DNA of 64,000 nt from a virus: the IMG/VR virus record IMGVR_UViG_3300035698_009139; one strand, 5' to 3'. This document shows positions 26,581 through 57,978 of this stretch, in pieces. The notes beneath the pieces were generated by a model. That model saw only the letters and a list, made by a program, of their open reading frames with translations, searched no databases and was not told the origin of the DNA. A program made the position numbers and the translations under genes. Each line of letters opens with the position of its first letter. Position 1 is the stretch's first letter.

Positions 26581-27035
26581 AATATGTATCAACAAAAACC
26601 TATAAAGACTTGGGTCCAGTGGCATATCGTCAATGGCGAGCTGAAAGTCACTGTAGGCACATTCACGGGTATTCGTTGTCATTCCACTTCGAGTTCACAG
26701 CAGATACCTTGGATGCACGAAACTGGGTTATGGACTTCGGCGGGCTCGGACCACTGAAGGATAATCTAGAAGACTGGTTCGACCATACGATGTTGGTGGC
26801 TGTTGATGACCCTGAGCGAGAAACTTTGTTAGCGCTTGCTGCAAAGGATTTGATCAAGGTAACGGAAGTGGAAAAGACCGGCTGTGAGGGGCTGGCAACA
26901 TTTCTATATGAATACATCAACACGATCTTTCTGAAAAATTACGGCGAGCAGGATCGCATCTGGTGCACTAAAGTAGAAGTGCGCGAGACTGAAAAGAACA
27001 TGGCGTATGTGACCGGGTATAGAGACATTGAGTAG
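26577..27035 (+). CDS. queD: 6-carboxy-5,6,7,8-tetrahydropterin synthase
   Basis: CRHIHGY, WVMDFGGL, FDH, VEVRET. Confidence 0.88.
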   Translation: MKYVSTKTYKDLGPVAYRQWRAESHCRHIHGYSLSFHFEFTADTLDARNWVMDFGGLGPLKDNLEDWFDHTMLVAVDDPERETLLALAAKDLIKVTEVEKTGCEGLATFLYEYINTIFLKNYGEQDRIWCTKVEVRETEKNMAYVTGYRDIE

Positions 27036-27417
27036 TATCAAGAACGACACTATGAGTGACCTCGCCGCCATAATTTGTAGAGAGATACAAATCGAAATCG
27101 ATAAAGAAATAACAGAATTACTTGCTTCTTCTGCAATAACTGGAGTGACAAAAGAACTGCCGGCCGCACCAACCGGTGATATGTTAGCTATACATAGATT
27201 CATCGGTTGGAAAGAAGACGGTCGCCAAGTGTATGGTGTTCGAGGAATGGGTCCCACTTACAAGAAATTCTACAATGAGTGGTATAACTCTACTCGAGTA
27301 GTGTGGTGCAGAGATGATTTTCCTTGGGACTACAACACTTTCACCAAACTCAGCGAAGCCGATCTAATAGATCAATGGGGCACCTATATTGAAGACATAG
27401 AGGAGGATACTGAATGA
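27028..27417 (+). CDS. Hypothetical protein with an N-terminal gp23 spine-helix-like segment
   Basis: DLAAIICREIQIEIDKEI resembles ELANILSAEILAEINREV of this phage's gp23. Confidence 0.6.
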   Translation: MSSIKNDTMSDLAAIICREIQIEIDKEITELLASSAITGVTKELPAAPTGDMLAIHRFIGWKEDGRQVYGVRGMGPTYKKFYNEWYNSTRVVWCRDDFPWDYNTFTKLSEADLIDQWGTYIEDIEEDTE

Positions 27418-28325
27418 TAGATAAAGAACACTTATACAGCGAAATCTTCTACTCGATTCAGGGTGAAGGCAAATACACTGGAGTTCCTACAGCTTGGCTG
27501 AGGTATTTCTCGTGTAACCTACAGTGTAATGGATTCGGTCAAGACTTTCCAACCAATCCATCAACACATGAGTTGCCTTACAAGGATATCAACCCGGCCG
27601 ATTACGATACGATGGAGGAATTGCCGGTGTTCGATAAGGGCTGCGATAGCTCGTATTCGTGGGCGTCCAAGTTCAAGTGCCTGCAACACAGCGACACTGC
27701 TGATGTGATTGTGGATAAGATTGCAGAAGCAGTTAGCACGGAAAGCAATCCAGAAGGGCTTTTCCACCACCCGAAAACACTGCAGCCAATTCATATGTGT
27801 TTCACAGGCGGAGAGCCAATGCTGAAAAACGCACAGCTTGCATCAGTTGAGATACTGAAACGTATGAGGGGCACATGTAATATTCCATCATCGATCACAT
27901 TTGAGACCAATGGCACTCAGCCGCTGACGGAAGAATTTACCAATCTGTTTGAAAACAAAGGGATGTTCTCAGGCGAACTATTCTTCTCAGTCAGCCCCAA
28001 ACTATATAACGTGTCTGGTGAAAAGCCAGAAAAGGCTATTAAGCCAGATGTTGTTAGACAGTATCAATATTTGTCAGGTGTCAAGAACGGCCAGCTGAAG
28101 TTCGTTGTGCGCGACAAACCCGAGGTCTGGGATGAGTTAGAAAAAGTGATCGAGCAGTTCAGATACGCCGGCGTGCAGTATCCTGTGTGGATCATGCCGG
28201 TTGGTGCTACAGTAGAAGAGCAAGAATCTTCGGCTGGCGATGTAGCAGAGAAGGCCTTCAAAAAAGGCTATAACGTAAGTTCCAGAGTGCATTGCTATCT
28301 CTGGGGAAACAAGATAGGAGTCTGA
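27414..28325 (+). CDS. queE: 7-carboxy-7-deazaguanine synthase (radical SAM)
   Basis: SEIFYSIQGEG, LRYFSCNLQC...GCDS, FTGGEPML, FETNGT, SVSPKL, RVHCYLWG. Confidence 0.9.
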   Translation: MIDKEHLYSEIFYSIQGEGKYTGVPTAWLRYFSCNLQCNGFGQDFPTNPSTHELPYKDINPADYDTMEELPVFDKGCDSSYSWASKFKCLQHSDTADVIVDKIAEAVSTESNPEGLFHHPKTLQPIHMCFTGGEPMLKNAQLASVEILKRMRGTCNIPSSITFETNGTQPLTEEFTNLFENKGMFSGELFFSVSPKLYNVSGEKPEKAIKPDVVRQYQYLSGVKNGQLKFVVRDKPEVWDELEKVIEQFRYAGVQYPVWIMPVGATVEEQESSAGDVAEKAFKKGYNVSSRVHCYLWGNKIGV

Positions 28326-28329
28326 GAAA

Positions 28330-29256
28330 TTGGGTATTGACTATTCTGGTAAAATGCCAGACTTGAAATTTGAATATGATGAAGCCCACGTTCCTGATCT
28401 GGAGAATCTACCTGACCCACAAGTAGACCCAATCATTCCTGGTGCACGTGTACCGATTCGTAAAGTCGGTATAGCGCCAGTTGATCTACCAATCATGGTT
28501 AAACGTCGTGATGGTACAACACAACAACTCCAAGCTCAGGCATCGTTGTACTGCTCATTGGACGATCCCGAAGCGAAGGGATTGAATCTATCACGCCTAT
28601 ATCTGATCATGCACGAAACGATCAAAGACCATTTGACGATCGAGGGATTGTCTGGCGCACTGAAACAATTGGCTGAAAAGCAGCACAGTAAGCATGCGTA
28701 CTGCAAGCTTCGGTTCAAGTATCCTTGGACGCAAGAGGCTTTACGTACTAAGGGCCTGCGTGGCCACATCGCATACGAGTGTGAAGTAGAAGCACAGCTG
28801 CATGACGGCGAGTATCGATTCTTTTTGACAGTTGATTACGTATACAGTAGCACATGTCCTTGTAGTTTCGAGTTAGCACATGATGCTACTTCGAAGCGCA
28901 ATGCAGCAGCGAATGCGCATTCCCAACGCAGCCACCTCAAGACCAAGATTGAATTCAGCTTGGACAATATTGTGTGGATCGAGGATCTGGTTGATCTATG
29001 TCGCCTGCATATTCCCACGGAGGTTCAAATCGTAGTTAAGCGAGCTGATGAGCAGGCGTTTGCAGAATTGAATGGAGCTAACCTTTTATTCAGTGAAGAC
29101 GTATGTCGTCTGATGTATGCAGCATTAGATAATTGGTTCGATGCTGGTGTGATCAGTGATTTCAGCATTGTTGTGTCACATGAGGAAAGCCTGCATCCTT
29201 GGAACGCTGTGGCTGTTACCAGCAAGTATAGTAATGATATGGGAGCACTGATGTGA
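28330..29256 (+). CDS. folE2: GTP cyclohydrolase I type IB
   Basis: LPDPQ, IRKVGI, KGLNLSR, YSSTCPCS, AHSQRS, VKRADEQAFAELN, ESLH. Confidence 0.9.
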   Translation: MGIDYSGKMPDLKFEYDEAHVPDLENLPDPQVDPIIPGARVPIRKVGIAPVDLPIMVKRRDGTTQQLQAQASLYCSLDDPEAKGLNLSRLYLIMHETIKDHLTIEGLSGALKQLAEKQHSKHAYCKLRFKYPWTQEALRTKGLRGHIAYECEVEAQLHDGEYRFFLTVDYVYSSTCPCSFELAHDATSKRNAAANAHSQRSHLKTKIEFSLDNIVWIEDLVDLCRLHIPTEVQIVVKRADEQAFAELNGANLLFSEDVCRLMYAALDNWFDAGVISDFSIVVSHEESLHPWNAVAVTSKYSNDMGALM

Positions 29257-30017
29257 TTAGTCGAGATGCAAAACGGGTATTGGCTGGTAAGATTTGGCAT
29301 GCTATGTATCCCAACAAGAACTTTTTTGACAACGAGAGTGGCATGTGGTCCGCTGGTGACAAAGAGCGAAGGATGTTTGCGTTGATCGATGAAATTGAAC
29401 CAGTGATGCGAGATCTATTCGGCCCATCGGCGGCCGAGAAAGCCTCAGATTTTCCTACTAATTCAATTGGGTCGATACCAAACATGGCTCCTACCCCACC
29501 ACCTATGGTAATCCTGGGCCCTATAGATACATCTAATGTGCAGCGTCACGACAATATAACAACAGCGGCCGTTCCACCAACAAACAACATGAAAGCTGTT
29601 TGGGTGACGTTTCAGAAAGAAGGCATGCACTGCTATCCGGATGCTGAGTATCTACCAGGCGTCGAGTTCCTATCATATCCACACCGCCACATCTTCAAGT
29701 TTAAGGTATGGATCCAGGTGTTCGATGACGATCGGGACATTGAGTTCATCCTATTTAAGCGAGAACTGGAAGCGCTGTATACTGGCTCTGTGCTCGAGTT
29801 AGATCACAAGTCTTGTGAGATGATTTCTGATGATCTTGCGGGGTATATTAAAGATAAATACGTGGGTCGCCACTTGCAGATTGAAGTCAGCGAGGATGGC
29901 GAGAACGGTAGTACATGCACATATGGAGTGACAAATGCAGAATTACAAGAGTTTCATCGCCGAGGAAGACAAAAAGCACATGACCCGATGGATCCAAAAA
30001 CAGGTTCATCAGACTGA
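29253..30017 (+). CDS. T-fold QueD-like protein (DpdL-like putative CDG decarboxylase) with an N-terminal extension
   Basis: C-terminal domain from M29589: EGMHCYP, LSYPHRHIF, DRDIEFI, SCEMI, VSEDGENG; sits in the que cluster. Confidence 0.6.
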   Translation: MISRDAKRVLAGKIWHAMYPNKNFFDNESGMWSAGDKERRMFALIDEIEPVMRDLFGPSAAEKASDFPTNSIGSIPNMAPTPPPMVILGPIDTSNVQRHDNITTAAVPPTNNMKAVWVTFQKEGMHCYPDAEYLPGVEFLSYPHRHIFKFKVWIQVFDDDRDIEFILFKRELEALYTGSVLELDHKSCEMISDDLAGYIKDKYVGRHLQIEVSEDGENGSTCTYGVTNAELQEFHRRGRQKAHDPMDPKTGSSD

Positions 30018-30114
30018 GCGTCCCCACGACGAAATCCGTACCGAATTTAAAAAGAAGTACGGCGATAAGCACCTGACACATTTTGACAGTACGGTGCAAC
30101 ACGAAGTCGGCTAA
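29935..30114 (+). CDS. 59-aa putative head internal protein with a T4-like capsid-targeting sequence
   Basis: Not in the ORF track (<60 aa). SD GGAG 6 nt before ATG; translates MQNYKSFIAEEDKKHMTRWIQKQVHQTERPHDEIRTEFKKKYGDKHLTHFDSTVQHEVG. Confidence 0.6.
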   Translation: MQNYKSFIAEEDKKHMTRWIQKQVHQTERPHDEIRTEFKKKYGDKHLTHFDSTVQHEVG

Positions 30115-30135
30115 CATTTGAAAGGCCTTTTTATT

Positions 30136-31005
30136 ATGATTAATTTTTGCCACATTTCACCACCGAAGTTTCAAATCGATTGCGAATGGATTATGCCCAA
30201 CCAGTTGATGCTAGCCCACTTGCTGGAAGATGAGCACGGTGATTACGCCACATTGCATAATGGTATATCGGCACGGAATGCTGGTCTACGCATCATGGAC
30301 AACAGCGCGTTTGAGATGTTCATGGAGGACCGGCCGATGTTCAGTGAGAGCAAGTTGCTTGAACTCGGCCGCCGCTGCAAAGCAGAATACCTCGTGATGA
30401 CGGATTACCCACTAGAGCCGTCGATCAAGACAATAAATGTAGCATGCAATCAGGGCCCCCAATTCCACGAGGCCGGGTTCAAAACATTCTTCGTACCCCA
30501 ATCAGAGCTCGGAGATCTTGAGGATTTTATTACAGCGTTTGCATTCGGCTGTGTGTCTCCCCACGTTGATATGATTGGTGTCAGTATTCTTGCAGCTCCC
30601 CACGCATTAGGGATTGATGCCAAGAACAAGGGGCCCAACAGATACTTATCCAGAACGGTGTTAATGCAAAAACTCAGAAGTAGAGGACTGCTGGATCTTG
30701 CTGCCAACAATGGCAAAAAGATCCATATGCTCGGGATGACGGATGGCCCAAGAGAAATTCAATTGATGCACAATGCTCGTCTCACTGGTGGTATATACAG
30801 TTGGGATTCTAGCGCGGCGGTTTGGGCAGGGATGAATGGGATTGTATTCGATGATTCCCCGACCGGGCTAATCAATGGTAAATTTGAAACACCAGTTGAT
30901 TTTGGGTATAGCGATGAAATATCTGAGGCCGCCCGCAACATGGCTATGCACAATTGCAGAGTGATGCGTCGATATTGTGAAGGAAAGTTTAACGATGGCG
31001 AATGA
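30136..31005 (+). CDS. TGT-like TIM barrel, putative DNA 7-deazaguanine transglycosylase (DpdA family)
   Basis: IMDNSAFE, IHMLGM, SWDSSAA parallel the TGT DSGG / HxxG / DS motifs; adjacent to queD/queE/folE2. Confidence 0.55.
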   Translation: MINFCHISPPKFQIDCEWIMPNQLMLAHLLEDEHGDYATLHNGISARNAGLRIMDNSAFEMFMEDRPMFSESKLLELGRRCKAEYLVMTDYPLEPSIKTINVACNQGPQFHEAGFKTFFVPQSELGDLEDFITAFAFGCVSPHVDMIGVSILAAPHALGIDAKNKGPNRYLSRTVLMQKLRSRGLLDLAANNGKKIHMLGMTDGPREIQLMHNARLTGGIYSWDSSAAVWAGMNGIVFDDSPTGLINGKFETPVDFGYSDEISEAARNMAMHNCRVMRRYCEGKFNDGE

Positions 31006-31279
31006 GAAACCAGCATTTCGGTTCGAAGAAGATACCAACATACAAGAGGTGTTGGATTATATAGGATCGACGTACGACCAGCATTATGTTGGCGGGAATG
31101 ACCTACAGACAGTTGATGTTTGGGAGATGATGAATATCGCCCAGGAGATGTGCCAGGGTACTGCAGTCAAGTATCTGGCTCGGTTTGGTAAGAAGGAAGG
31201 CCTGAACCGCAAAGACTTGTTGAAGTGCGCCCACTACGTAATCCTTCTGATGCATTTTGCAGGCAAGGAGGATAGCTGA
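30995..31279 (+). CDS. DUF3310-like small phage protein
   Basis: TYDQHYV, AVKYLARFGKKEG..KDLLKCAHY. Confidence 0.7.
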   Translation: MANEKPAFRFEEDTNIQEVLDYIGSTYDQHYVGGNDLQTVDVWEMMNIAQEMCQGTAVKYLARFGKKEGLNRKDLLKCAHYVILLMHFAGKEDS

Positions 31280-31797
31280 TGTTTGTTCATCCAAAAAGTA
31301 AATCTAACACCAGAATATCAGCACCACACGTATGGCCAATAGAAGACAATCAAATTCAGCCAAATGCAGTAGATCTGCGCGTGGATAAGATATACCAACA
31401 GAGGGGCTTTTTTGCACTGACTAAAGCCCACACCGAGCACAGAGATAAAAAAGAATTGAATCCTGATTGGGATAGCTCCAATGATATCAGCTTATTCAAA
31501 TTGGTACCTGGCGCGTACGAGGTCACGTTCTTGGAAACGGTCAAAATGGCCGATGATGAGCTTGGATGGGTAACCCAGCGGTCGTCTCTGTTACGGAATG
31601 GGCTAACACTTACTAGCGGGTTGTACGATGCTGGGTATGAGGGACAGGTGGGTGGCTTGTTAGTGGTTAGAGGTTTTGAAGCCTACATCGAACGCCATAC
31701 TCGATTAGCCCAATTCTTAGTTGCCAAAGCAGACACGTACAAAAAGTATGAGGGGCAATATGGCGCTGGTTCAAAGCATGACGAAATTTATCAGTAA
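31279..31797 (+). CDS. dUTPase / dCTP deaminase family protein
   Basis: QPNAVDLR, RSSLLRNG, SGLYDAGYEG, RLAQF, YEGQYG. Confidence 0.85.
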   Translation: MFVHPKSKSNTRISAPHVWPIEDNQIQPNAVDLRVDKIYQQRGFFALTKAHTEHRDKKELNPDWDSSNDISLFKLVPGAYEVTFLETVKMADDELGWVTQRSSLLRNGLTLTSGLYDAGYEGQVGGLLVVRGFEAYIERHTRLAQFLVAKADTYKKYEGQYGAGSKHDEIYQ

Positions 31798-32038
31798 CGT
31801 ATTCTACTCGGCACTAGAAATAGGATTTTTAGTGGCTATGGTTGGCGTAATATGTTTTATATCTGTTCTTGATTTATATATGACGCAAAGAGATATATAC
31901 ATCGACGTTAAGCATCGACGGAGTAAAGACCGCGGCAAGACTTGGTGGCAAAAGATTTCAGAGAGATTCGGCCACGCCAAAAAGACAATGATTGAACGAA
32001 TACAAAAAATATGGAGAGAAAATGAACGTCGAGATTAA
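31778..32038 (+). CDS. Small membrane protein
   Basis: One hydrophobic segment (IGFLVAMVGVICFISVL) followed by a basic tail. Confidence 0.5.
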   Translation: MTKFISNVFYSALEIGFLVAMVGVICFISVLDLYMTQRDIYIDVKHRRSKDRGKTWWQKISERFGHAKKTMIERIQKIWRENERRD

Positions 32039-32873: not shown

Positions 32874-32880
32874 GTGAAAC

Positions 32881-33534
32881 TTGAAATTTTGTGATGACAC
32901 GATTGCGATTCTGAAAAACATAGTAACGATTACTCCCAGCATCTGGTTCGATGAAGGGAATATCGTTACCGTCGGTAACGCAACTGAGACCATTTTAGTG
33001 TCGGCAAATATTGCCGAGAGTTTCGATCAGAGTTTTGGTATTGGGGAGCTGACTATGTTCCTCAATACCCTACTACTATTCGATGAAGCTGATATAGAGC
33101 TCAAAGACAACCACGCAATCATATCAGAAGGCGGCAAGAAGTTGAAGTACTTCTATGCGTCTAAATCCCAACTGAATCTCCCAAGAATCAAAACACTAGA
33201 TATCGACGATTCTGCTATGAAGTTCAGCTTATCTGCTGATATGCTTGCTTCGATCAATAGAGCCGCGGGCACTCTACAATTACCCAATGTTACCTTCATT
33301 GGCGACGGTACAGAGGTTAAGGCCAAAATCACCAACGTTAATGATCAAACGTCTAACACGTTTGATCTGGTGGTGGGGGCTGGAGGCTCGCCGTGCGAGA
33401 TTGTGTTCACGATCGACAACTTCAAAATGATCAACACGGACTATGATGTGAATGTGTCTAGTTCCGGTTTCGCTGAATTCAAATCAACAGATAATACAAT
33501 CACGTATTGGCTGGCTGCTGAGGAAATTAAATAA
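32881..33534 (+). CDS. gp45: Sliding clamp gp45
   Basis: TIAILKN, FGIGEL..FL, NFKMINTDYDV, YWLAAE; precedes gp44. Confidence 0.88.
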   Translation: MKFCDDTIAILKNIVTITPSIWFDEGNIVTVGNATETILVSANIAESFDQSFGIGELTMFLNTLLLFDEADIELKDNHAIISEGGKKLKYFYASKSQLNLPRIKTLDIDDSAMKFSLSADMLASINRAAGTLQLPNVTFIGDGTEVKAKITNVNDQTSNTFDLVVGAGGSPCEIVFTIDNFKMINTDYDVNVSSSGFAEFKSTDNTITYWLAAEEIK

Positions 33535-34916: not shown

Positions 34917-34918
34917 TC

Positions 34919-47877: not shown

Positions 47878-47885
47878 TATAAATA
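47878..47885 (+). promoter_or_regulatory. T4-type late promoter overlapping a hairpin (47881-47910)
   Basis: TATAAATA; AAATACTTCA-gctactaa-TGAAGTATTT-TT. Confidence 0.82.
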
Positions 47886-47960: not shown

Positions 47961-48596
47961 ATGTCCGGTTGGGGAAAAACAACAGACGCCAGTGCCGCAG
48001 GTAACGTAGACCTGGGTGCTAATAACACACCATTCAGATACAAGGGCGGTTCAAGCCCAGAAGCAGCAACGCAGGCAGCTGAAAAACGTAACGTGATTAT
48101 GACTGATCAGGGGTATGTTCGTCGACTGAATACTGTCGATTTGAACGCCAATCAACGCACACGCGACGAAATCCTTATTGCTCAGGCCGGCGTGCCAGGT
48201 GATGCAGGCTTCCCAAATATCACAGAAATCTACTTGAGCTCCAACGCATCTGGTGGCGTATTATCCGCGGCCGGCGCTGGCAACGTATATGTTGTGTTCA
48301 GCGAGCCTGTTAACTTCAATCTCAACGCCACGGATTTGACGTTGAGCATTGCTAACACAGCTGGTGGTAACCACGCCGTCGCCCGATGTGAGGTAGGCGA
48401 TGCCTTGCTTAATGCCAACAACACATTGGTATTCAAGTTCACATCCGGCGAACGTGGTACATATCAGGTGAACGCACAGTCGATCGGTGTATCTGGTTCC
48501 TTCCAGAACCTAATTTCGCTGAACACATCTGGTGCAACAGCAAACATCGTTATCAGCGGAGCCGTATCAAATAACTTGAGCACGTTCTCTGCGTAA
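47961..48596 (+). CDS. Putative virion structural protein (Ig-like C-terminus)
   Basis: MSGWG start, GYVRR...DEILIA, VYVVFSEPV; late promoter upstream. Confidence 0.6.
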   Translation: MSGWGKTTDASAAGNVDLGANNTPFRYKGGSSPEAATQAAEKRNVIMTDQGYVRRLNTVDLNANQRTRDEILIAQAGVPGDAGFPNITEIYLSSNASGGVLSAAGAGNVYVVFSEPVNFNLNATDLTLSIANTAGGNHAVARCEVGDALLNANNTLVFKFTSGERGTYQVNAQSIGVSGSFQNLISLNTSGATANIVISGAVSNNLSTFSA

Positions 48597-48606
48597 GGAG
48601 TAAGAC

Positions 48607-49017
48607 ATGGCTGACAGTAAGGTATCCCAACTTGCTGCTGTGACGAGTCCCGCTTCGTCTGATTTGATCCTTATCATTGATGATCCGAATGGAACGCCAG
48701 TAAGCAAGAAGATTACGATCAAGAACTTGTTTGGCAACGTGCCGTCCAATACTGTGTTCGAAGCTACAATGACTGCGCAATCAAATGTAACATTCACTGG
48801 CACGACAGCCAACGTTACAGCAAACTTGAATAGCACAGGCATCACCACGCTGAATCGACTGATTGTGGCAAACGATCACATCACTATTTCAAATCGTCAA
48901 ACACCTGCGTCTAATACGGCCGCAGGAGCACAAGGCGAATTTGCTTATGATTCAGGATATATGTATGTGGCGGTAGCTAACAATATTTGGAAAAGGGCAG
49001 CACTGAGTAGTTTCTAA
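48607..49017 (+). CDS. Putative virion structural protein
   Basis: MADSKVSQL...DDPNGTPVSKKITIKNLF; C-terminal GAQGEFAYDSGYMYVAVANNIWKR fibre-type motif. Confidence 0.65.
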   Translation: MADSKVSQLAAVTSPASSDLILIIDDPNGTPVSKKITIKNLFGNVPSNTVFEATMTAQSNVTFTGTTANVTANLNSTGITTLNRLIVANDHITISNRQTPASNTAAGAQGEFAYDSGYMYVAVANNIWKRAALSSF

Positions 49018-49380
49018 ATGGATGAATTTGAATTGACCGACACTAATTTAACATTGTTTGCCATGAAATATTATCAGAATTCTGGTTGCACGGACGTGCT
49101 TGAGTTCCACGATGATATGAAGCGAATCAAATACATCAAGAGATTGTTCAAGAAATACAAAGATACGGGCGAGCTGAAAGAGCGGCTGATCCTGAATCAT
49201 TTGATAGTGCTGTATAACGTGTTCCATCATCCCGCAATGACTAAGATGCTGATGCATCGGCTGAAGGGATATGAGGATTTTTTAAAAACGTTCCTTATCT
49301 ATTTGAGCTATTGGCCACCCGAGAGGGGCGTAGAGATTTCAATAGATCAAAGGATAGTGGACGTACTGAGAAGGTTGTAA
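49018..49380 (+). CDS. Conserved T4-like hypothetical protein
   Basis: FAMKYY, EFHDDMKRIKYIKRLF, LKERLILNHLIVLYNVF. Confidence 0.75.
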   Translation: MDEFELTDTNLTLFAMKYYQNSGCTDVLEFHDDMKRIKYIKRLFKKYKDTGELKERLILNHLIVLYNVFHHPAMTKMLMHRLKGYEDFLKTFLIYLSYWPPERGVEISIDQRIVDVLRRL

Positions 49381-49381
49381 T

Positions 49382-50083
49382 ATGGCTAACAAAGGAACAG
49401 ACCTATACGTAGCATACCGGTTCGTCAAAGAGCTGAGTACACCTTTTGATAAAACAGATGCCTTTTCACTTGGGCTGATCGATGCTAAGGGCAAACTGCT
49501 TAAGCGCCCAAAAACACAAGCAGAAAAGAAAGCATACAACCCATTCGTCAGACTGATCTTCAATGTCAAGAGAGCATTGGGGCGAGCTGGTTTGGGCAAT
49601 CGTCTGTCGTCATTCGCCGCGGCAATGTTTCTGATGAAAGAAGAATCATCTGATGATCAGCGGCTGAACTTTTTATGCGACAACGAGTATGTGTTAAATT
49701 CATCTATGCTAAGATGTAGAGCCGAGCTCGGCCGTCTACGCCCAGATCTAGTTATACTTGAAGACGCTCCCACGAACGCAGTTGGTGGTGGAGCAATAGC
49801 GGGAACGGATGACAATCCTCCTGTGCGTAAAAAGCAAAAGAGCTACAGTTTCATCCGCCGCATCAATAATAGTGATGTTTATATGGTTGACAAGAACACG
49901 TTTGCTGCAGCAAAGGTCGGCCGACGCAAAGGATATGCGATGGAAGAAATCAGTGATGAGTTTGCTGAAACGCTAAAAGAGCATCAAGTCAACGACGTAG
50001 GACGCCCGCTAATCATCCAATGCGATGAGACAAACGAATTATTGTTCGTTGCGTATGGGCACAGAAAGCCAAGAGGCATATAA
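49382..50083 (+). CDS. Conserved T4-like hypothetical protein
   Basis: YRFVKEL.TPF..TDAF.LGLIDAKG, EDAPTNAVGGGAIAG. Confidence 0.7.
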   Translation: MANKGTDLYVAYRFVKELSTPFDKTDAFSLGLIDAKGKLLKRPKTQAEKKAYNPFVRLIFNVKRALGRAGLGNRLSSFAAAMFLMKEESSDDQRLNFLCDNEYVLNSSMLRCRAELGRLRPDLVILEDAPTNAVGGGAIAGTDDNPPVRKKQKSYSFIRRINNSDVYMVDKNTFAAAKVGRRKGYAMEEISDEFAETLKEHQVNDVGRPLIIQCDETNELLFVAYGHRKPRGI

Positions 50084-50628
50084 TGACACCAGAGCAAATC
50101 ATCAAAGATATCATCCGCCGCGAAGGTGGGTATAACGACATCAAAGAAGATCAAGGTGGTGCTACCAACCTGGGAATCTCTTTGCGGTATGCTAAGGGTG
50201 TCGGGCTGGATATGGACGGCGACGGCGACACAGATAAAGACGACATCAAGATGGTCGACGAGAAGACGGCCACTAAACTGTACAAAAATGACTTCTTTAC
50301 AGGCCCACGAATCAACACGCTACCAGTATCTATCCAAGCGCAGATGTTTGACATAGCTGTTAATGCTGGGCCACCCCGGGCCATTATGATGGCGCAAACT
50401 ATTACTAATCAGGCTGGGTTTGGACCGGTCGACCAAGATGGTGTTATTGGCCCTATGTCACGAGCAGCCATTGAGCGCGCAGTTGATGACATGGGCCCAT
50501 GGTTTGGCAATGCGCTCGTTGAAGAACGGTTGGCACATTATCGCCGAATCATAAAGAACCGTCCATCCCAGCAGAAATTCTGGAACGGTTGGCACAATCG
50601 CGCCATGGAATTTTACAAGGAAATCTAA
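50083..50628 (+). CDS. Endolysin, glycoside hydrolase family 108 with a C-terminal peptidoglycan-binding domain
   Basis: REGGY, DQGGATNLGIS, FDIAVNAG, DGVIGP, KFWNGWHNR. Confidence 0.9.
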   Translation: MTPEQIIKDIIRREGGYNDIKEDQGGATNLGISLRYAKGVGLDMDGDGDTDKDDIKMVDEKTATKLYKNDFFTGPRINTLPVSIQAQMFDIAVNAGPPRAIMMAQTITNQAGFGPVDQDGVIGPMSRAAIERAVDDMGPWFGNALVEERLAHYRRIIKNRPSQQKFWNGWHNRAMEFYKEI

Positions 50629-51185
50629 TGTCTATTATTGGAAATTTATTTGCAGGTGGTATACAAGGAATAGCTAAGGCCGGCACGCGTGTATACACTG
50701 CAGTTGCCGGTGACCAGGTCCAAAAGGACCAACAGTATCACACTGAGCAAATGGCTACGTCAAGTGCATATATATCAGAGTTTGCTGCTCCAGAGAAGAA
50801 GGGTATATTCAACAGCCTAGTTGATGGGGCTAATAGGCTAGTCCGCCCTATATATACATACAACATCATTGGAATGCTGTGGTGGGCAGTGATTGATCCT
50901 GTGCAATTCACGACGGCCATGGTCGCACTTGCTATTGTGCCAGACATGCTGTGGGGAATATTCTTTACGGTGACCAGTTTCTGGTTCGGTGGGCGATTTA
51001 TTAAAGACTGGCGTGGTAATAAAATTGACGCTACCAAGCAGTTGGAAACGCTTAAAAACTTGCAGAAAATCCAAGGAAAAATCGGCGGCGAAGCTTCATA
51101 CCAAAATGAGCTATCAGATACCTCTAAACCGCTTACCAATTCAGCGATTTTAGAGTGGAACCGAAGACGCCAAGACAATAAATAA
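50628..51185 (+). CDS. Putative holin (3TM-holin-like)
   Basis: NRLVRP, hydrophobic segments, FWFGGR; coupled to the endolysin. Confidence 0.7.
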   Translation: MSIIGNLFAGGIQGIAKAGTRVYTAVAGDQVQKDQQYHTEQMATSSAYISEFAAPEKKGIFNSLVDGANRLVRPIYTYNIIGMLWWAVIDPVQFTTAMVALAIVPDMLWGIFFTVTSFWFGGRFIKDWRGNKIDATKQLETLKNLQKIQGKIGGEASYQNELSDTSKPLTNSAILEWNRRRQDNK

Positions 51186-51222
51186 TCTATATAAAATAAT
51201 ATAAAAAACAGGTGCCATTGTA

Positions 51223-51441
51223 ATGGACGACAATATACCAGATCATAACCTACTAATCCGAATTGATGAACGCACTAAAAACATCGAAGAAGAGATGAAG
51301 AAATTTCCGGCCAAGTATGTGTCGAAGGAAGAATTCCGCCCCATTAAAGCGTTTGTGTATGGGCTTATGACAGCAGTAATGTTAACGGTATTGGGTGCTG
51401 TTTTAACACTTGTTGTTAATAATGGAGTGCCCGGTGCGTAA
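51223..51441 (+). CDS. Small membrane protein of the lysis cassette
   Basis: LIRIDERT coiled segment plus a C-terminal TM helix. Confidence 0.6.
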   Translation: MDDNIPDHNLLIRIDERTKNIEEEMKKFPAKYVSKEEFRPIKAFVYGLMTAVMLTVLGAVLTLVVNNGVPGA

Positions 51442-51894
51442 GTTTTTCGCTCATATTTATTCTCTGTGTGCGGTCGCTGTGGTATTAGCGTCGGTGTTAG
51501 TGGGAACGTATTGGGGCACATACGGCTCTAGAGAAATGTTTCAGGTTAATACTACTGAGATAGTAGAGATGACGCCTAATAAATTGGTTATCGATCGCAC
51601 CATAAAGAAGAGCATGATATGCCCAGTGGTATCCATTGATCATTATTTGATGTTTCCTGGCGGGGCCACACTGGGACTCAGAAAAGCCAGCATCATGCTG
51701 ATTACAAAACTAATACGCTGGTAACAATCAGATTTGTATTTGCTCTCCCACCTCAAGTTATAGACGTGTCGGACAAATATGGCCACCGAGTGAAGTTGGC
51801 ATACAGCTGCAACCCCTTCCACCAGCCGGTGTATACGGTTGATTCTAATATTGTTTCAGTGCCACACAAGAAGTTGTCTACCCTTTCAAAATAG
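51434..51894 (+). pseudogene. Signal-anchored periplasmic protein, frameshifted between 51640 and 51722
   Basis: The N-terminal TM ORF stops at 51724; the -1 frame is open 51640-51894 (HHADYKTNTLVTIRFVFALP...LAYSCNPFHQP) and fills the gap to the primase promoter. Confidence 0.55.
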
Positions 51895-51902
51895 CGTATA
51901 AT
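51874..51902 (+). promoter_or_regulatory. Sigma70-type promoter (primase operon)
   Basis: TTGTCT-17 nt-TATAAT. Confidence 0.72.
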
Positions 51903-51908
51903 ACTTGG

Positions 51909-52946
51909 ATGTCTGTAATGAATGATATCCAGTATGCTAATCTACTATCATCAAGACTAGAGCGATGGGTTGTCAAGAACAACAACCCTTTTCTAGCCAA
52001 TTTCCGTTGCCCAATATGTAGAGATAGCCAAAAGCGCAAGCATAAGAAACGTGGGTTCCTGTTTCAGGTATCTGACGGGCTGATGTTTAAGTGCCACAAC
52101 TGTGGGTCGTCTTGGCCATTCTCTAAGCTACTAGAGACAATAGACCCACAAGCGCATAAAGAATATGTCATGGAGAAGTACAAAGGCACGGGCAAGAAAC
52201 CTAAAGTGCTTATGCCGATGATGCCTCCCAAACCAGCATTCAAAAATCCAGATAGGTTGATAGACCGACTGATGGATCGGGTTGATAGACTCGAGTCTGG
52301 GCATCAAGCAGTCGAGTACTGCGAACATCGACAAATTCCCAGAGAGCAATGGCATCGTCTATACTACGTAGACAATATCAGCAACATCAGCCAGCTGTCG
52401 GACAAGTATAGAGACCGGATCACCACCAAAGAACCTAGGCTGGTGATCCCTACGTTTGATGCAAACGATAAGCTGGTGCATATGACCTGCAGAGCCTTCA
52501 GCGATGACCTGATCAGATATCTGACGGTCAATGTAGCAGAGCCGCCTCACCCACCTTTTGGTATAGACAAGTTTGATCGAACCAAGCGCGGATTCGTAGT
52601 AGAGGGGCCGCTGGATAGTCTGTTCGTTCCAAATAGTGTTGCAAGAGGTACGTCTGATTTGAAGGGTGCCATTCCTTGGGTGATAAAAGAAAATGTCACA
52701 CTGATATTTGACAACCAGCCAAGAAATCGCGAAATTGTAAAACTAATGCAACGCCATATTGATCAAGGGTTTACGTTGATGATTTGGCCCGATGGCACAG
52801 GGCAAAAAGATATCAACAATATAATCATGGAGGGTGAAATGACGGCTAACCAGCTAATGACTGTCATAAATAATAACACGTTCAACGGTCTAGCGTTGCA
52901 GGTTAAATTCAACAAGTGGAAGAAGATTGGTGATGGAATTTCTTAA
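51909..52946 (+). CDS. gp61: DNA primase gp61
   Basis: NFRCPICRDS, FKCHNCG, RLVIP, VVEGPLDSLF, IFDNQPRN, KDIN. Confidence 0.95.
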   Translation: MSVMNDIQYANLLSSRLERWVVKNNNPFLANFRCPICRDSQKRKHKKRGFLFQVSDGLMFKCHNCGSSWPFSKLLETIDPQAHKEYVMEKYKGTGKKPKVLMPMMPPKPAFKNPDRLIDRLMDRVDRLESGHQAVEYCEHRQIPREQWHRLYYVDNISNISQLSDKYRDRITTKEPRLVIPTFDANDKLVHMTCRAFSDDLIRYLTVNVAEPPHPPFGIDKFDRTKRGFVVEGPLDSLFVPNSVARGTSDLKGAIPWVIKENVTLIFDNQPRNREIVKLMQRHIDQGFTLMIWPDGTGQKDINNIIMEGEMTANQLMTVINNNTFNGLALQVKFNKWKKIGDGIS

Positions 52947-53586
52947 AGCAACGGTTGAGTATGTCGATCATATGGGTAGCGATCTATCGGTGGTCAATGC
53001 TGCTCGTGTATCCTTTGACAAGCATCACGAGATATTTAAACAGCCTGATGATGAAGGGCTGATCAAATATTTGGCCAGAGAAGGACACTGGAGCCCATTT
53101 GCTCACACGACTATACAGATAAGAGTAAGTTGTTGTTTTGCAATTGCTAAGCAGCTGGCGAAGCACCAGGTGGGGTTTGCATGGAACGAGATCAGTAGAC
53201 GCTACGTTGATTTTGAGCCATCATACTTCAAACCGACCGACTGGCGTTCATCGTCTGCTGACAAGAAGCAAGGTTCTGGTGAGGCTCTAGCTTCACAGAC
53301 TGTGGTGGATAAAGTTTACATGGATGCGATCGCAGACGCCAATGAGGCATATAATAGGTTACTAGCATTGGGCGTATGTGCAGAGCAAGCTAGATTTGTG
53401 ATGCCCCTGGGTGCCATGACGACGTGGTATTGGACGGGGTCTGTTTATGGTTTTGCGCGAGTGTTTAACCAGCGATCAAAAGAAGGGCACAATGCCCAAG
53501 AAGAAGCCGAGGATGTCGCAAAACTGATCGTCCAGATATGCAACCAACACTTTCCAGTCTCTTGGAAGTATCTTACAGGAAAATAA
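52933..53586 (+). CDS. thyX: Flavin-dependent thymidylate synthase
   Basis: MGSDLSVVNAARVSF, HWSPF, KHQVGFAWNEISRRYV, KQGS, EQARFVMP. Confidence 0.95.
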   Translation: MEFLKATVEYVDHMGSDLSVVNAARVSFDKHHEIFKQPDDEGLIKYLAREGHWSPFAHTTIQIRVSCCFAIAKQLAKHQVGFAWNEISRRYVDFEPSYFKPTDWRSSSADKKQGSGEALASQTVVDKVYMDAIADANEAYNRLLALGVCAEQARFVMPLGAMTTWYWTGSVYGFARVFNQRSKEGHNAQEEAEDVAKLIVQICNQHFPVSWKYLTGK

Positions 53587-53592
53587 CTAAAA

Positions 53593-55380
53593 ATGCAGTA
53601 CGAAGGTATCGAGATCGATTTGTCTCGCGACGAACTATTTGACAAACTTGGCCTGATTCGCCTACAAGAATCATATATGAGAGACGACGAGACCAGCCCA
53701 CAGCATCGATTTGCATACGTGGCTAAACGATTCGGTACAGATATAGCACATTCGCAACGACTGTATGATTATATGTCGAAGCATTGGCTGTCGTGCAGCA
53801 CGCCTATTCTTAGTTACGGCCGCACGGAGCGCGGTCTGCCAATCAGTTGCTATCTAAATTACATTGACGATAGCTCGGCAGGATTGGTGGACACATTATC
53901 TGAGACCAACTGGCTTTCGATGCTCGGCGGAGGGGTTGGAATAGGTTTCGGTATGCGAGCGGCTGGCGAGAAGTCTACTGGCGTCATCCCACATCTTAAA
54001 CTGTATGATGCATCGTCTCTGGCTTATCGTCAAGGCAAAACGCGCCGCGGAAGTTATGCAGCATATCTAAACATCGACCATCCAGACATCACCCAGTTCC
54101 TCGAGATGCGTAAGTCCACGGGCGACCAAAACTTACGTTGCCTGAATCTCCATCACGGTATCAACATCTCCGATAAGTTCATGCAGATCATTGAGAATCT
54201 GATGACAGATCCGAATGCTGATGACACATGGAATCTGATTGACCCACACACCAATAGTGTGACGGAAGTAGTCAGCGCACGTGAGTTGTGGCAGAAGATC
54301 ATGGAATTGCGAATGCAGACCGGCGAACCTTATATGCATTTCATCGACACAAGTAACAAGCATTTACCGCAGTGGCTGAAGGACAGAGGCCTGGAAATAC
54401 GCCAGTCTAATCTGTGTAGTGAAATCATTCTGCCGACCAATGAAGACCGCACTGCAGTATGCTGCTTGAGTTCGCTGAATTTGGAACACTATGACGCGTG
54501 GCGCCGCAACCCTGGCTTCTTGCAGGACGTTGCTGAGATGTTGGACAATGTGCTGCAGTTTTTCATCGACACGGCTCCTGACACAATCAGCCGGGCTATC
54601 TATAGTGCAACACGTGAACGATCGATTGGTATTGGTGCCCTCGGCTTCCACGCATACCTGCAGAAGAATGGTATTCCGTTTGAGAGTGCGATGGCTAAGT
54701 CTGCTAACATCCGTTTATTCAAATACATCCGCACATCACTGGATGCAGCCAATCTTGTGTTGGGCAAGGAACGCGGTGAGGCACCAGACGCAGAGGGAAC
54801 AGGCCTGCGGTTCAGTCATTTGATGGCAATCGCTCCGAACGCATCATCGTCAATTATCATGGGCAACACATCGCCTTCGATTGAACCATATCGGGCTAAT
54901 GCATATCGTCAGGATACATTGTCCGGATCTCATATGAATAAGAATCGCCACTTGGATGCACTGATCAAAAAGCATTGTGAGGGTGATACGGCAATGTATG
55001 ATCGAATTTGGTCGTCGATCATTTCTAATGACGGTAGCTGTCAGCACTTGTCGTGGATGGAAGATTACGACAAAGATGTATATAAGACAGCAATGGAAAT
55101 CGATCAGCGCTGGGTGATAGAACATGCAGCAACCAGGCAGCAATGGATCGATCAAGCACAGTCATTGAACTTATTCTTTCGGCCGGACAGCAACATCAAG
55201 TATTTACATGCGTGCCATTTTCTCGCTTGGAAATCTGGACTAAAGACGCTATACTATTGTAGGTCAGAGAAAATCGGTAAGGCCGATAAGGTCGCAAAGA
55301 AGATCGAGCGACAAATCATCAAAGAATTAGATTTTGAAGCAATCATCGCAGGTGATGATTGCATAGCATGTGAGGGATAA
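53593..55380 (+). CDS. nrdA: Ribonucleotide reductase class I alpha subunit (short, no ATP cone)
   Basis: STPIL, PISC, GGGVG, QSNLCSEI, VCCLSS, RSIGIG, IAPNASSS, DQAQS, LKTLYY, C-terminal CIACEG. Confidence 0.96.
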   Translation: MQYEGIEIDLSRDELFDKLGLIRLQESYMRDDETSPQHRFAYVAKRFGTDIAHSQRLYDYMSKHWLSCSTPILSYGRTERGLPISCYLNYIDDSSAGLVDTLSETNWLSMLGGGVGIGFGMRAAGEKSTGVIPHLKLYDASSLAYRQGKTRRGSYAAYLNIDHPDITQFLEMRKSTGDQNLRCLNLHHGINISDKFMQIIENLMTDPNADDTWNLIDPHTNSVTEVVSARELWQKIMELRMQTGEPYMHFIDTSNKHLPQWLKDRGLEIRQSNLCSEIILPTNEDRTAVCCLSSLNLEHYDAWRRNPGFLQDVAEMLDNVLQFFIDTAPDTISRAIYSATRERSIGIGALGFHAYLQKNGIPFESAMAKSANIRLFKYIRTSLDAANLVLGKERGEAPDAEGTGLRFSHLMAIAPNASSSIIMGNTSPSIEPYRANAYRQDTLSGSHMNKNRHLDALIKKHCEGDTAMYDRIWSSIISNDGSCQHLSWMEDYDKDVYKTAMEIDQRWVIEHAATRQQWIDQAQSLNLFFRPDSNIKYLHACHFLAWKSGLKTLYYCRSEKIGKADKVAKKIERQIIKELDFEAIIAGDDCIACEG

Positions 55381-55382
55381 TT

Positions 55383-55964
55383 ATGAATTTTCTACCAATA
55401 CAGAAGATGTCGGCTGATAAACTGGTTTTTGCTATGTGTGCTAAATATGCTAAACCTAACGGTCTTGGCTTCTCTATAGAGAAGCATGAGGTGGGGCTAG
55501 ACGTTGAAGCCAATATGTCGAAAGCCGTATCCCAATTGATGCAAGAAAAGTTTGAAATGTTGGACCGGCCAGTTGATATGAAGTGGAACCCACCACATCA
55601 CAACAAATGGCAGAAGATCATCCGCATCATTCGAGGCACAGGAGATGATATACATCCACTTAATCATGCCATACACCGCGCGGGCAACAAAATTGCGAAG
55701 CGGACACGAAGGGGTATAGGTAATGTGTTGATTTATAATCCGGGTTGGACACATTACGGAATGGAATCCTCTCTGACTGGCACCCCGGTCACAAAGATCC
55801 GCCACCCACTATGCCCTCTTGATAAAATGCTCTTGTTGTATATGGGAGAGAATGATTTCGATGCTGGTTATATGTACGTGGAAGGAAGTGGGTTGTTTAA
55901 GCAACCTGATAGATTTTGCAAAGCAGAAGATTATGGCATGTGGATCCAGCTAGACAATGGTTGA
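55383..55964 (+). CDS. Miniaturised gp23 (major capsid protein) paralogue
   Basis: Six blocks collinear with this phage's gp23, e.g. NKIAKRTRRGIGNVLI vs NAIAKATRRGKGNVMI and YMGENDFDAGYMY vs YKGSSAFDAGLFY. Confidence 0.75.
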   Translation: MNFLPIQKMSADKLVFAMCAKYAKPNGLGFSIEKHEVGLDVEANMSKAVSQLMQEKFEMLDRPVDMKWNPPHHNKWQKIIRIIRGTGDDIHPLNHAIHRAGNKIAKRTRRGIGNVLIYNPGWTHYGMESSLTGTPVTKIRHPLCPLDKMLLLYMGENDFDAGYMYVEGSGLFKQPDRFCKAEDYGMWIQLDNG

Positions 55965-56547
55965 AATTATTTGGCATCAAAACCCGCTGAGATCAGAAGT
56001 GCTTCTGAACGACAACGACAAGCAGTTGCTCTGGCATAAAGTTAAGATCGAGGAATTGCTGAATGGCATGTGCGGGGCTCACATGTATATACAAGATGCC
56101 CTCAAATCACGTTGGTGGGTACCTGCAGGTATCATAAAGAAGGCCCTCAAAGAGCTGGATTATACTGATGCGATCGATGCCGAAGTTGATCGAATGACAG
56201 AAGTGTGCATCCAAGACTTGAGGGGATGGCATATGGGAGATTGCACTTGTTTCGCAAACAGCTGTGCAAAGTGTCATGCCGAACACATGCTAGGAATTGA
56301 CACCATTAAAGGCTTAGGGAAACATGCTGGGTCCTATGTGTCGTCAGCATTCGACAGCACTGTGCTTGGCGCCCCTGAGCGTACGACTGCTGAGGCGATC
56401 GACGTGTTGATAAATCGAGACGACTCCGAGAAAACGGACACATGGTCTAATTATTCTGATGAGCAATGGGATAAATTAGTTGCCCGATGGAACGGGGAAC
56501 GCAAAGAGGCAATTAAATGGTTAAAGGTCTATCAAGCAAATCTTTAG
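55957..56547 (+). CDS. Hypothetical protein with a His/Cys cluster
   Basis: HMGDCTCFANSCAKCHAE. Confidence 0.65.
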   Translation: MVEIIWHQNPLRSEVLLNDNDKQLLWHKVKIEELLNGMCGAHMYIQDALKSRWWVPAGIIKKALKELDYTDAIDAEVDRMTEVCIQDLRGWHMGDCTCFANSCAKCHAEHMLGIDTIKGLGKHAGSYVSSAFDSTVLGAPERTTAEAIDVLINRDDSEKTDTWSNYSDEQWDKLVARWNGERKEAIKWLKVYQANL

Positions 56548-56549
56548 TA

Positions 56550-56777
56550 ATGCCCGTGTGTGACACTAAACGTCACTTGGTGTGCTACCCATACAATAAA
56601 CAAAACCTGCATTTAATGGCCAAGGTTATGGGCATAGGCCGACACTGGTTTCACAAAGACCACTATGATATACCGAAAAGACGGCGACCAGAAATAGAAT
56701 CTAAATGCTTCAAGGTGAGTAGCAAAGAGATCGTACAAATAATAAAAGGCGGAGAGCTAGAATGGCTAAAGATCTAA
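56550..56777 (+). CDS. DUF4031-like small protein
   Basis: LHLMAKVMGIGRHWFHKDHYDIPKRRR. Confidence 0.6.
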   Translation: MPVCDTKRHLVCYPYNKQNLHLMAKVMGIGRHWFHKDHYDIPKRRRPEIESKCFKVSSKEIVQIIKGGELEWLKI

Positions 56778-57733
56778 AACTAACAGACGAACGCAATTAC
56801 TTTAAGCCATTCCATTATCCTTGGGCGTACGATGCATGGTTAATGCACGAGCAAAGTCACTGGTTGCACACGGAAGTTCCTATGCTGGATGACGTCAAAG
56901 ACTGGCGCCTGCGTCTGTCAGATGCTGAGAAGCATTTCCTAACTCAGATCTTCCGCTTCTTCACTCAGGGTGATATTGACGTAGCTGATGGGTACGTCAA
57001 TAATTTTCTGCCGTACTTCCCGCAGCCAGAAGTCCGTATGATGCTCGTAGGGTTCGCTGCACGAGAAGCTCTGCATATTGCTGCATACAGCCACCTAATC
57101 GAAACATTGGGAATGCCAGAAAGCACGTACAGTGAGTTCTCCGAATACAAGGAGATGCAGAACAAGCACGATTACATTCAGAAGCTAAGTGGTAAGAGCG
57201 CCAAGAATGTGGCGCAACAGATTGCAGCGTTCTCAGCATTCACAGAAGGGATGCAACTGTTCAGCTCATTCATCATGCTGCTGAATTTTCCTCGCCACGG
57301 CAAGATGAAGGGTATGGGGCAAATCATCACTTGGTCAATCGTTGATGAGACGATGCACGCCGAGTCAATGATCAAGCTGTTCCGAACATTCATTGAAGAG
57401 AATAAAGATATTTGGAACGACGAGCTGAAAGGCGAGATCTACTCCATTGCAGAGAAAATGGTCAGCCTGGAAGACGAGTTCATCGACCTAGCATTCAAGA
57501 TGGGGTCGGTGGAGAATCTGACGGCCGATGAAGTCAAGAAGTACATCAGGTACATCGCCGACCGTCGATTGATTTCACTGGGGATGAAAGGCATCTTCCA
57601 CGTAAGAACGAACCCGTTGCCATGGGTTGAAACAATGATTAATGCACCCACGCATACGAACTTCTTTGAGAACAGGGCAACGGATTATGCTAAGGGTGCG
57701 TTGGAAGGTGACTGGGGAGAGGTGTGGGCGTAA
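56762..57733 (+). CDS. nrdB: Ribonucleotide reductase class Ia beta subunit
   Basis: FFTQGD, REALH..AY (radical Tyr), EGMQLFSSF, DETMH, YIADRRL, NFFENRATDY. Confidence 0.96.
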   Translation: MAKDLKLTDERNYFKPFHYPWAYDAWLMHEQSHWLHTEVPMLDDVKDWRLRLSDAEKHFLTQIFRFFTQGDIDVADGYVNNFLPYFPQPEVRMMLVGFAAREALHIAAYSHLIETLGMPESTYSEFSEYKEMQNKHDYIQKLSGKSAKNVAQQIAAFSAFTEGMQLFSSFIMLLNFPRHGKMKGMGQIITWSIVDETMHAESMIKLFRTFIEENKDIWNDELKGEIYSIAEKMVSLEDEFIDLAFKMGSVENLTADEVKKYIRYIADRRLISLGMKGIFHVRTNPLPWVETMINAPTHTNFFENRATDYAKGALEGDWGEVWA

Positions 57734-57978
57734 GACATTTTGTAAAGTGGCCGCTTAGATTATTCGTTTGGAAGTGGTCTGCTCTTCTTTTAAAACTAGC
57801 AGGGTTCCCTTCTCTTTTAACTAGATATAAAATTGCGAAGGTGCGGAGAGATTTCATGCGCGGACTGCGCAGAGTGTATCCCGGCCTGGTTGCTGAAGAA
57901 TTGATAGGTGTTCAACCAATGACAAAGGATGCCGGCCAAATATTTACAATGAGGGTTAAAAACAATGTACGTGATTAA
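57724..57978 (+). CDS. Small protein carrying a gp23 Gol-region homologue
   Basis: LRRVYPGLVAEELIGVQPMTKDAGQIFTMR vs gp23 VRRSMPNLVAYDLCGVQPMTGPTGLIFALR; alternative start ATG 57856 with SD GGAGA. Confidence 0.7.
   Translation: MGVRHFVKWPLRLFVWKWSALLLKLAGFPSLLTRYKIAKVRRDFMRGLRRVYPGLVAEELIGVQPMTKDAGQIFTMRVKNNVRD

Follow-up and report, generated by a model that had tools for sequence, protein, structure and literature searches.

A miniature gp23-type protein and a stand-alone Gol-region reading frame in the nrd operon of an uncultured T4-like phage

The stretch of DNA analyzed here, the 64,000 nucleotides of IMG/VR virus record IMGVR_UViG_3300035698_009139 (below, the window), belongs to an uncultured T4-like phage, and identical DNA is present in contigs of four salt-lake metagenome runs (2018). 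Apart from the gene for its major capsid protein (MCP), gp23, the window contains three open reading frames (ORFs) that a first-pass annotation had described as gp23 mimics; their positions were confirmed (Table 1), and they comprise 129, 193, and 84 amino acids (aa) with TTG, ATG, and GTG start codons, respectively. The 129-aa ORF lies between queD and queE, beside folE2, the 193-aa ORF between nrdA and nrdB, and the 84-aa ORF between nrdB and a thymidylate-kinase-like gene. Judged from sequence and a predicted model, the 193-aa product, here called mini-gp23, is an intact member of a small, old, and previously unnamed family of miniature gp23-type proteins with a predicted HK97 fold. By sequence alignment, the 84-aa ORF contains a piece of about 60 residues that is homologous to the N-arm and Gol region of gp23.

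gp23-like reading frames outside the head module

Each of the 1092 six-frame pieces of the window was searched with a gp23 profile built from 20 sequences, and the best matches other than gp23 itself were the 84-aa ORF (E 6.8e-10), the 193-aa ORF (E 2.3e-6), and the 129-aa ORF (E 0.0023), with the fourth such match at an E-value of 0.32. Compared to 40 shuffles of all pieces, in which the highest score was 7.0 bits, the three ORFs reached 34.4, 22.8, and 12.9 bits, respectively. With the Pfam Gp23 model, the cut-off of 24.4 bits was exceeded by the 84-aa ORF (Table 1), the 193-aa ORF scored slightly below it at 22.9 bits, and the 129-aa ORF gave no match. The capsid origin proposed for all three is upheld for the 193-aa and 84-aa ORFs, which are intact and situated outside the head module, and is not established for the 129-aa ORF.

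At the DNA level, the matched segments share 50-62% nucleotide identity with resident gp23. Third codon positions are kept at a near-random rate (9/32 and 8/21), while second positions are conserved (23/32 and 17/21), and therefore none of the ORFs is a recent copy of resident gene 23. This pattern agrees with the earlier description of diverged DNA with conserved motifs and fits constraint at the protein level. An origin of the fragments as recent duplicates of resident gene 23 was rejected, given the saturated third positions and the closer relation of the 84-aa ORF to foreign gp23. The resident gp23 itself is 66% identical to the MCP of Stenotrophomonas phage DLP_6, its closest cultured relative, and about 77% identical to its IMG/VR relatives. 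Five related phage records, one of them an estimated 76% complete, have gp23 alone, with none of the three ORFs in the available parts. Co-occurrence of the three was not found elsewhere, as homologues of the 193-aa protein were without the other two ORFs in the 11-17 kb examined around them.

The three ORFs are packed into their operons by starts and stops that overlap or lie 2 nucleotides (nt) apart, confirming the tight coupling within the que and nrd operons noted at first pass. The exact T4-type late promoter TATAAATA occurs 12 times in the window, compared to 2.1 expected, with 11 of the 12 sites on the + strand and a span from 2990 to 58676. Most sites are immediately 5′ of structural or head genes, e.g., at 16637, 17794 (the site of resident gp23), and 19280, and further ones precede 43301, 44533, and 47961. 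None stands directly ahead of the three ORFs, as had been claimed, the closest upstream sites on the + strand being those at 19280 and 47878, each more than 7 kb away; the genes from 47961 to 62853 are all on the + strand.

Mini-gp23, its family, and its predicted fold

Mini-gp23 has codon usage typical for genes of this phage, and it matches the gp23 profile in three collinear hidden Markov model (HMM) pieces. Nine distant homologues of 163-317 aa (25-32% identity) on metagenomic phage contigs came from an exhaustive HMMER search covering 1.84 billion representatives, and a profile search added two further family members. The family members share an N-terminal F-L-x-x-Q strand, an (E)AE helix, the motifs R-A-x-N-x-I-A-x-x-T-R-R-G-x-G-N-x-V-x-Y-N-P and C-P-x-D...L-Y-x-G....D-x-G-x-I-Y, and a C-terminal D-Y-G. 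The relation to gp23 is evident by several comparisons: the family HMM matches residues 278-409 of resident gp23 (E 3e-8), hhalign pairs the family with gp23 at 96.9% (E 2e-10, 86 columns), T4 gp23 is the only PDB sequence match, and the homologues P0013 and P0012 pass the Pfam Gp23 cut-off with 39.2 and 29.8 bits. For one close pair of members, the ratio of nonsynonymous to synonymous substitution rates (dN/dS) is 0.2, and therefore the family is under purifying selection.

Among cultured phages, tblastn returned no match for the 193-aa protein or its homologue P0011, and P0007, another homologue, retrieved only one true MCP. Megablast of 55000-58500 produced no match, and a word-index protein search with the 193-aa protein found the query only. 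No description of a free-standing mini-gp23 family was found in Pfam, PHROGs, NCBIfam, or the literature searched on capsid decoys, truncated gp23 paralogues, and HK97 proteins exported by twin-arginine translocation (Tat). When 53500-59100 was compared with the four salt-lake runs, mini-gp23 and the Gol-like ORF were identical, with no polymorphism. The divergent contigs in these runs, which come from other organisms, matched within the interiors of nrdA and nrdB only.

The structure of mini-gp23 was predicted with AlphaFold2 from a 12-sequence family alignment from which gp23 was excluded, giving a model with a predicted local distance difference test (pLDDT) score of 80 and a predicted template modeling (TM) score of 0.77; single-sequence prediction of the 193-aa protein gave a pLDDT of 30 and was unusable. 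The top match of the model in VIA-align was unexpanded T4 gp23, with a Z-score of 12.2 and a root-mean-square deviation of 3.4 Å over 173 of the 193 residues, covering gp23 residues 107-521 at 17-21% identity. Next came gp24, encapsulins, HK97, and many phage capsids; 85 chains had a Z-score of at least 8, and the top 50 shown were all capsid, encapsulin, or phage-related proteins. All significant Foldseek matches were HK97-fold proteins, and a structure search of the Atlas gave a TM-score of 0.69 to a Gp23 cluster. Together with the three collinear HMM pieces, this superposition bears out the earlier description of the 193-aa ORF as a collinear mini-capsid.

In the predicted model, the spine helix, P-domain sheet, and A-domain follow one another in canonical HK97 order. 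Mini-gp23 starts within the Gol region of gp23 and continues collinearly to the gp23 C terminus, retaining the first P-domain strands, the spine helix, and the A-domain with its TRRGxGN and FDAG-type motifs, and the A-domain motifs are the best-conserved part shared with gp23. It is devoid of the propeptide, N-arm, insertion domain, and most of the E-loop, at the site of which only a hairpin of 10+10 residues (residues 14-36) precedes the spine helix in chain order. A complex prediction with gp23 (residues 85-462) and the 193-aa protein scored 0.01, provided no verdict, and was not used.

Compared to T4 gp23 (PF07068, PDB 7VRT/5VF3), mini-gp23 has the same HK97 core, order of elements, TRRGxGN and FDAG-type motifs, and GVQPM-type strand. 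It differs in size (193 aa versus 462-521 aa), in the missing parts listed above, in its location, which is the nrd operon and not the head module and is distant from late promoters, and in its patchy presence among relatives. T4 gp24 (PDB 1YUE) is likewise a diverged gp23 paralogue from the same phage type and aligns with the model over 172 residues (Z 9.2), but it is a full-length, late, structural penton subunit encoded next to gene 23, none of which applies to mini-gp23. The SaPIbov5 protein Ccm (PDB 7RWZ), an MCP homologue that interferes with capsid assembly, is also among the fold matches (Z 8.0), although it is a full-size satellite protein that co-assembles into shells. A size reduction is also seen in the Family 4 A-domain encapsulins (DUF1884), proteins of about 100 aa that consist of the A-domain only and are encoded adjacent to enzymes in hyperthermophilic archaea and in two genera of Bacteroidetes (Andreas and Giessen 2021, PMC8346489). 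Like these, mini-gp23 is a drastically shortened HK97-fold protein away from a capsid module, and for them the binding of partners instead of the formation of a classical shell has been proposed (PMC8346489); unlike these, the mini-gp23 family is phage-encoded, gp23-derived, and retains P-domain strands and the spine helix. A Pfam scan of the ORFs at E-values up to 1 returned Gp23 only and no DUF1884.

The family is rare and patchy, with homologues in three different genomic contexts. A degenerate-motif DNA scan of IMG/VR found no members, and the same kind of scan in metagenomes gave 33 loci with just three true members, all of already known types. The P0007 gene is part of an accessory island (L098:1-16822, on a 93.5-kb metagenome contig) that is encoded on one strand throughout and contains genes for ribosomal protein S21, HSP20, a MotA/ExbB-like protein, ClpS, an RF-1-like protein, NifU, the anti-Pycsar protein Apyc1, and the anti-Gabija protein Gad2. 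In a second context, the closest full-length homologue of the 193-aa protein, P0006 (35% identity), is encoded last in L100:5866-8567, in which TATAAATA is followed by a 154-aa ORF, a gp13-like gene, and a 267-aa gene that is possibly gp14-like.

Putative Tat signal peptides precede a complete mini domain in 4 of the 12 family members (P0007, P0012, P0015, and P0016; loci L098:8001-8822, L109:86-889, and L128:106-909), whereas the 193-aa protein of the window has no such leader. Tat leaders are marked by an N-terminal S/T-R-R-x-F-L/G-x motif, a hydrophobic stretch, and an A-x-A-type site; by eye the motif was plain in the four members, with the Pfam and NCBIfam signal models slightly below their cut-offs (14.6 versus 22.7 and 14.8 versus 16.7). 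Such leaders would imply that a folded capsid-like protein is exported to the periplasm in that branch. Altogether, the patchy distribution, the varied contexts, and the absence from the five related records argue that mini-gp23 is an accessory gene and not a core head component.

Table 1. Coordinates of gp23, the three ORFs, and associated features in the window
Feature	Position	Strand	Basis or remark
gp23, major capsid protein, 462 aa, reference for comparisons	17838-19226	+	Pfam PF07068, E 3.7e-140
Orphan ORF, 129 aa, alternative ATG at 27052	27028-27417	+	Between queD and queE; ATGA overlap with queE
Closest upstream TATAAATA for the nrd-operon ORFs	47878-47885	+	7.5 kb distant
GAGG, putative ribosome-binding site of mini-gp23	55372-55375	+	7 nt 5′ of the ATG; nrdA stop 2 nt from the ATG
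Mini-gp23, miniature gp23 paralogue with predicted HK97 fold, 193 aa	55383-55964	+	In the nrdA/nrdB interval; gp23-profile match, family, predicted fold
Cys/His-rich orphan ORF, 196 aa	55957-56547	+	8-nt overlap with the 3′ end of mini-gp23
84-aa ORF, residues ~19-79 homologous to the gp23 N-arm and Gol region	57724-57978	+	Pfam Gp23, 36.9 bits
Putative internal start of the 84-aa ORF: GGAG, 7-nt spacer, ATG 57856; 40-aa product almost solely Gol-like	57845-57858	+	Read from the sequence

The gap between nrdA and nrdB, presumably the site where T4 has mobE, holds three inserted accessory genes. The Cys/His-rich 196-aa ORF next to mini-gp23 has no match in Pfam, PHROG, or NCBIfam and no relative beside the mini-gp23 homologues. 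It is a possible partner of mini-gp23; its identification as a tandem mini-gp23 was rejected because it has no match with the family HMM. Between this ORF and nrdB lies a gene for an 86-aa DUF4031 protein (56517-56777).

The Gol-region and 7-deazaguanine-operon reading frames

Alignments of the 84-aa ORF with the gp23 Gol region are ungapped, in accord with the Gol segment assigned to it at first pass, and residues 36-79 correspond to gp23 profile positions 74-117. Jumbo-phage MCPs give a longer and stronger alignment than resident gp23, with 48 bits for Xanthomonas phage Xoo-sp13 (residues 19-77) and 47 bits for Yersinia phage fHe-Yen9-04 compared to 38 bits for the resident protein, and the ungapped identity of the ORF is 21/43 to the Yersinia jumbo-phage gp23 and 17/32 to the resident protein. 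Aligned without gaps to the T4-type RRAIPNL...FALR stretch, which we take to be the 29-residue T4 Gol region, it still has RR, P, GVQPM, and G-x-I/V-F at their positions, and it has lost the conserved Pro after QPM-T as well as several positions invariant in the resident gp23 clade. The piece appears to be a capture from some gp23 that was either old or foreign. Compared to the T4 Gol/e14 Lit trigger, the ORF has the Gol-region homology, but here the segment stands alone, outside gp23.

The frame is open over 84 codons, and the homology extends over about 60 residues with no frameshift. The GTG start codon at 57724 overlaps the nrdB stop codon and is preceded by GGAG/GAGG, and at its 3′ end the ORF runs into the ATG of the thymidylate-kinase-like gene. 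By codon-usage score, 57856-57963 is gene-like (0.22-0.31) and 57736-57855 is near zero. No like-sized relatives of the ORF were found, a word-index protein search returning only the query. Because of the long frameshift-free frame and the operon packing, translation is slightly favored, either as the 84-aa product or as the 40-aa peptide from the internal start (Table 1).

Farther 3′, just beyond the dCMP deaminase gene, a 148-aa ORF at 59062-59508 matches PHROG 447 (labeled NAD synthetase) and, more weakly, two homing-endonuclease PHROGs.

The N-terminal helix of the 129-aa ORF resembles the spine helix of gp23 over 45 residues with 31% identity, as the first-pass annotation had proposed, and its HMM score lies above the shuffle maximum; the hhalign probability is just 14%, and the likeness is therefore suggestive only. 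The remainder of the ORF has no match to gp23 or the mini-gp23 family, and no homologues were found by tblastn of cultured phages, in the Protein Atlas, or in the search for related loci. Its codon usage is coding-like, and because of these good coding statistics and its coupling to queD and queE, the ORF is very probably a genuine gene of the 7-deazaguanine operon, with its descent from gp23 unproven. The surrounding region (26074-30017) encodes a peptide deformylase, QueD, the 129-aa orphan, a QueE-like protein, a FolE2-type GTP cyclohydrolase, and further ORFs, and is preceded by a gene for a gp46-like SMC/Rad50 ATPase.

Possible roles of mini-gp23 and the Gol-like product

In our reading, held with about even confidence, the three ORFs represent three separate things and not one system. 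The propeptide of T4 gp23 is the part cut off by the prohead protease. Because both the propeptide and the connecting arms are missing, mini-gp23 is not expected to be a normal shell subunit; without these parts and the capsomer-linking arms it would serve as a soluble capsid-like binding module. In this phage it would be produced alongside nucleotide-metabolism genes and would bind gp23-type capsomers or factors that recognize unassembled gp23. Capsid proteins act as triggers of many bacterial defenses, which makes a soluble protein that resembles the capsid an obvious mimicry candidate. We tentatively suggest that mini-gp23 may titrate or cap partners of unassembled gp23, such as a capsid sensor of the host, a chaperone, or the capsomers of its own or a rival phage, a role that is possible rather than probable. 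No other part of gp23 is as conserved as the Gol peptide, which binds domains II/III of EF-Tu (PMC3014915), and the 84-aa product, if T4 Gol-like, would by analogy bind the same domains. A wider proposal, according to which a minimal HK97 core of about 165-190 residues would be a free-standing effector of the T4 supergroup, made before or apart from heads and Tat-exported in one branch, mimicking capsid to blind immunity or to cap rival capsomers, with the Gol-region peptide as a second, independent mimic at the EF-Tu/Gol axis, is unlikely as a whole.

Several observations weigh against these readings. In the P0006 phage, late expression and an association with the neck would be expected of the mini protein, given the promoter and neighbors of its gene, and in the phage studied here late read-through from 47878 may extend into the nrd operon. 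The Tat-bearing branch would work outside the cytoplasm, where neither capsid nor capsid sensor is expected, and the accessory character of the family argues against one uniform cytoplasmic role. The family also shares just 17-21% identity with T4 gp23 in the structural superposition and is older than any resident gp23 lineage, and both points cut against a general decoy of cytoplasmic capsid sensors. The likeness of the 129-aa ORF to gp23 may be that of a chance amphipathic helix. The coding signal in the N-terminal half of the 84-aa ORF is weak, and given the strong conservation of the Gol region, a young relic from a gp23 lineage not yet sampled could have the same appearance. The abundance of EF-Tu is also far beyond what a minor peptide could titrate.

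Among the alternatives, the one that fares best, with a probability somewhat short of even, holds that illegitimate recombination inserted a gp23 fragment whose untranslated relic is the 84-aa ORF, that the 129-aa likeness arose by chance, and that only the 193-aa gene is truly capsid-derived. The near-zero coding score at the start of the 84-aa ORF, the absence of like-sized homologues of the 84-aa and 129-aa ORFs in the searches run, the possible youth of a conserved Gol fragment, and the low hhalign value of the 129-aa ORF all favor it. Pointing the other way are the 84 open codons, about 60 of them homologous and free of frameshifts, the saturated third and retained second codon positions, two plausible ribosome-binding sites, and the start and stop that overlap neighbors in a tightly packed genome; the 129-aa ORF, for its part, beats all shuffles and has good coding statistics.

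Alternatively, the HK97 core may have been exapted for non-capsid work, as an enzyme scaffold or chaperone (perhaps for ribonucleotide reductase) and, in the Tat-bearing relatives, as a periplasmic binder, e.g., in superinfection exclusion. Truncated, enzyme-associated HK97 folds are known from Family 4 encapsulins (PMC8346489), the gene sits in the nrdA/nrdB interval, with translational coupling to the orphan Cys/His-rich ORF, four of the homologues have Tat signals that look textbook-like, and the contexts of the homologues are diverse. This possibility is nonetheless a low one, as no homologue is found beside nrd genes or a recurring enzyme, the ORF has no Pfam match to DUF1884 or encapsulin families, and, unlike A-domain encapsulins, it keeps the P-domain and spine helix.

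Less probable still is a role of the 193-aa protein late in infection, as a minor component of the head or of its assembly, such as a special vertex, a portal-proximal subunit, or a capsomer plug or co-factor. The P0006 operon, led by TATAAATA and shared with gp13-like and gp14-like neck genes, would support it, as would the conservation of the A-domain motifs shared with gp23, since A-domain helices of the HK97 fold make within-capsomer contacts (PMC8346489), and the six-frame scan with the gp23 profile showed no gp24-type vertex gene in the window. Against it stand the absence from the available parts of five related phages with the same type of gp23, a genomic position that is not conserved, the distance of 36 kb between the gene within the nrd operon and the head genes, and the Tat-bearing branch, members of which could not be head proteins.

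Equally improbable, and not upheld as a single system, is the first-pass proposal that all three ORFs are early, non-assembling mimics that jointly block capsid-sensing defenses (Lit/Gol, CapRel-type) or poison rival T4-like heads: a free Gol-like peptide is expected to trigger and not to block a Lit-type protease (PMC3014915), titration of EF-Tu is unrealistic, the three ORFs are never found together elsewhere and the five related records have gp23 only, the capsid origin of the 129-aa ORF is unproven, some family members are predicted to be Tat-exported or lie in a late operon, the identity of the mini protein to gp23 is just about 20% in the structural superposition, with sequence-level likeness limited to a few core motifs (TRRGxGN, FDAG-type), and the Gol-like ORF is nearer to jumbo-phage gp23 than to resident gp23. 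In its favor, two of the ORFs are truly gp23-derived and lie in a nucleotide-metabolism operon with no late promoter nearby, Gol-region sequence is present in both of these nrd-operon ORFs, and the P0007 island also holds the anti-defense genes for Apyc1 and Gad2, a circumstantial point from one homologue.

The shells of tailed phages, herpesviruses, and encapsulins are universally built from the HK97 fold, and to our knowledge shortened free-standing versions of it are barely known apart from the archaeal A-domain encapsulins. A phage-encoded version of one-third size outside the head genes suggests a second, non-shell use of the capsid fold. The mini-gp23 family offers a concrete route for testing capsid mimicry, and it defines a minimal HK97 core that could be of use in structural and protein-engineering work. 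The stand-alone Gol-region ORF, in turn, represents a natural experiment that bears on the reason for the strong conservation of this gp23 segment.

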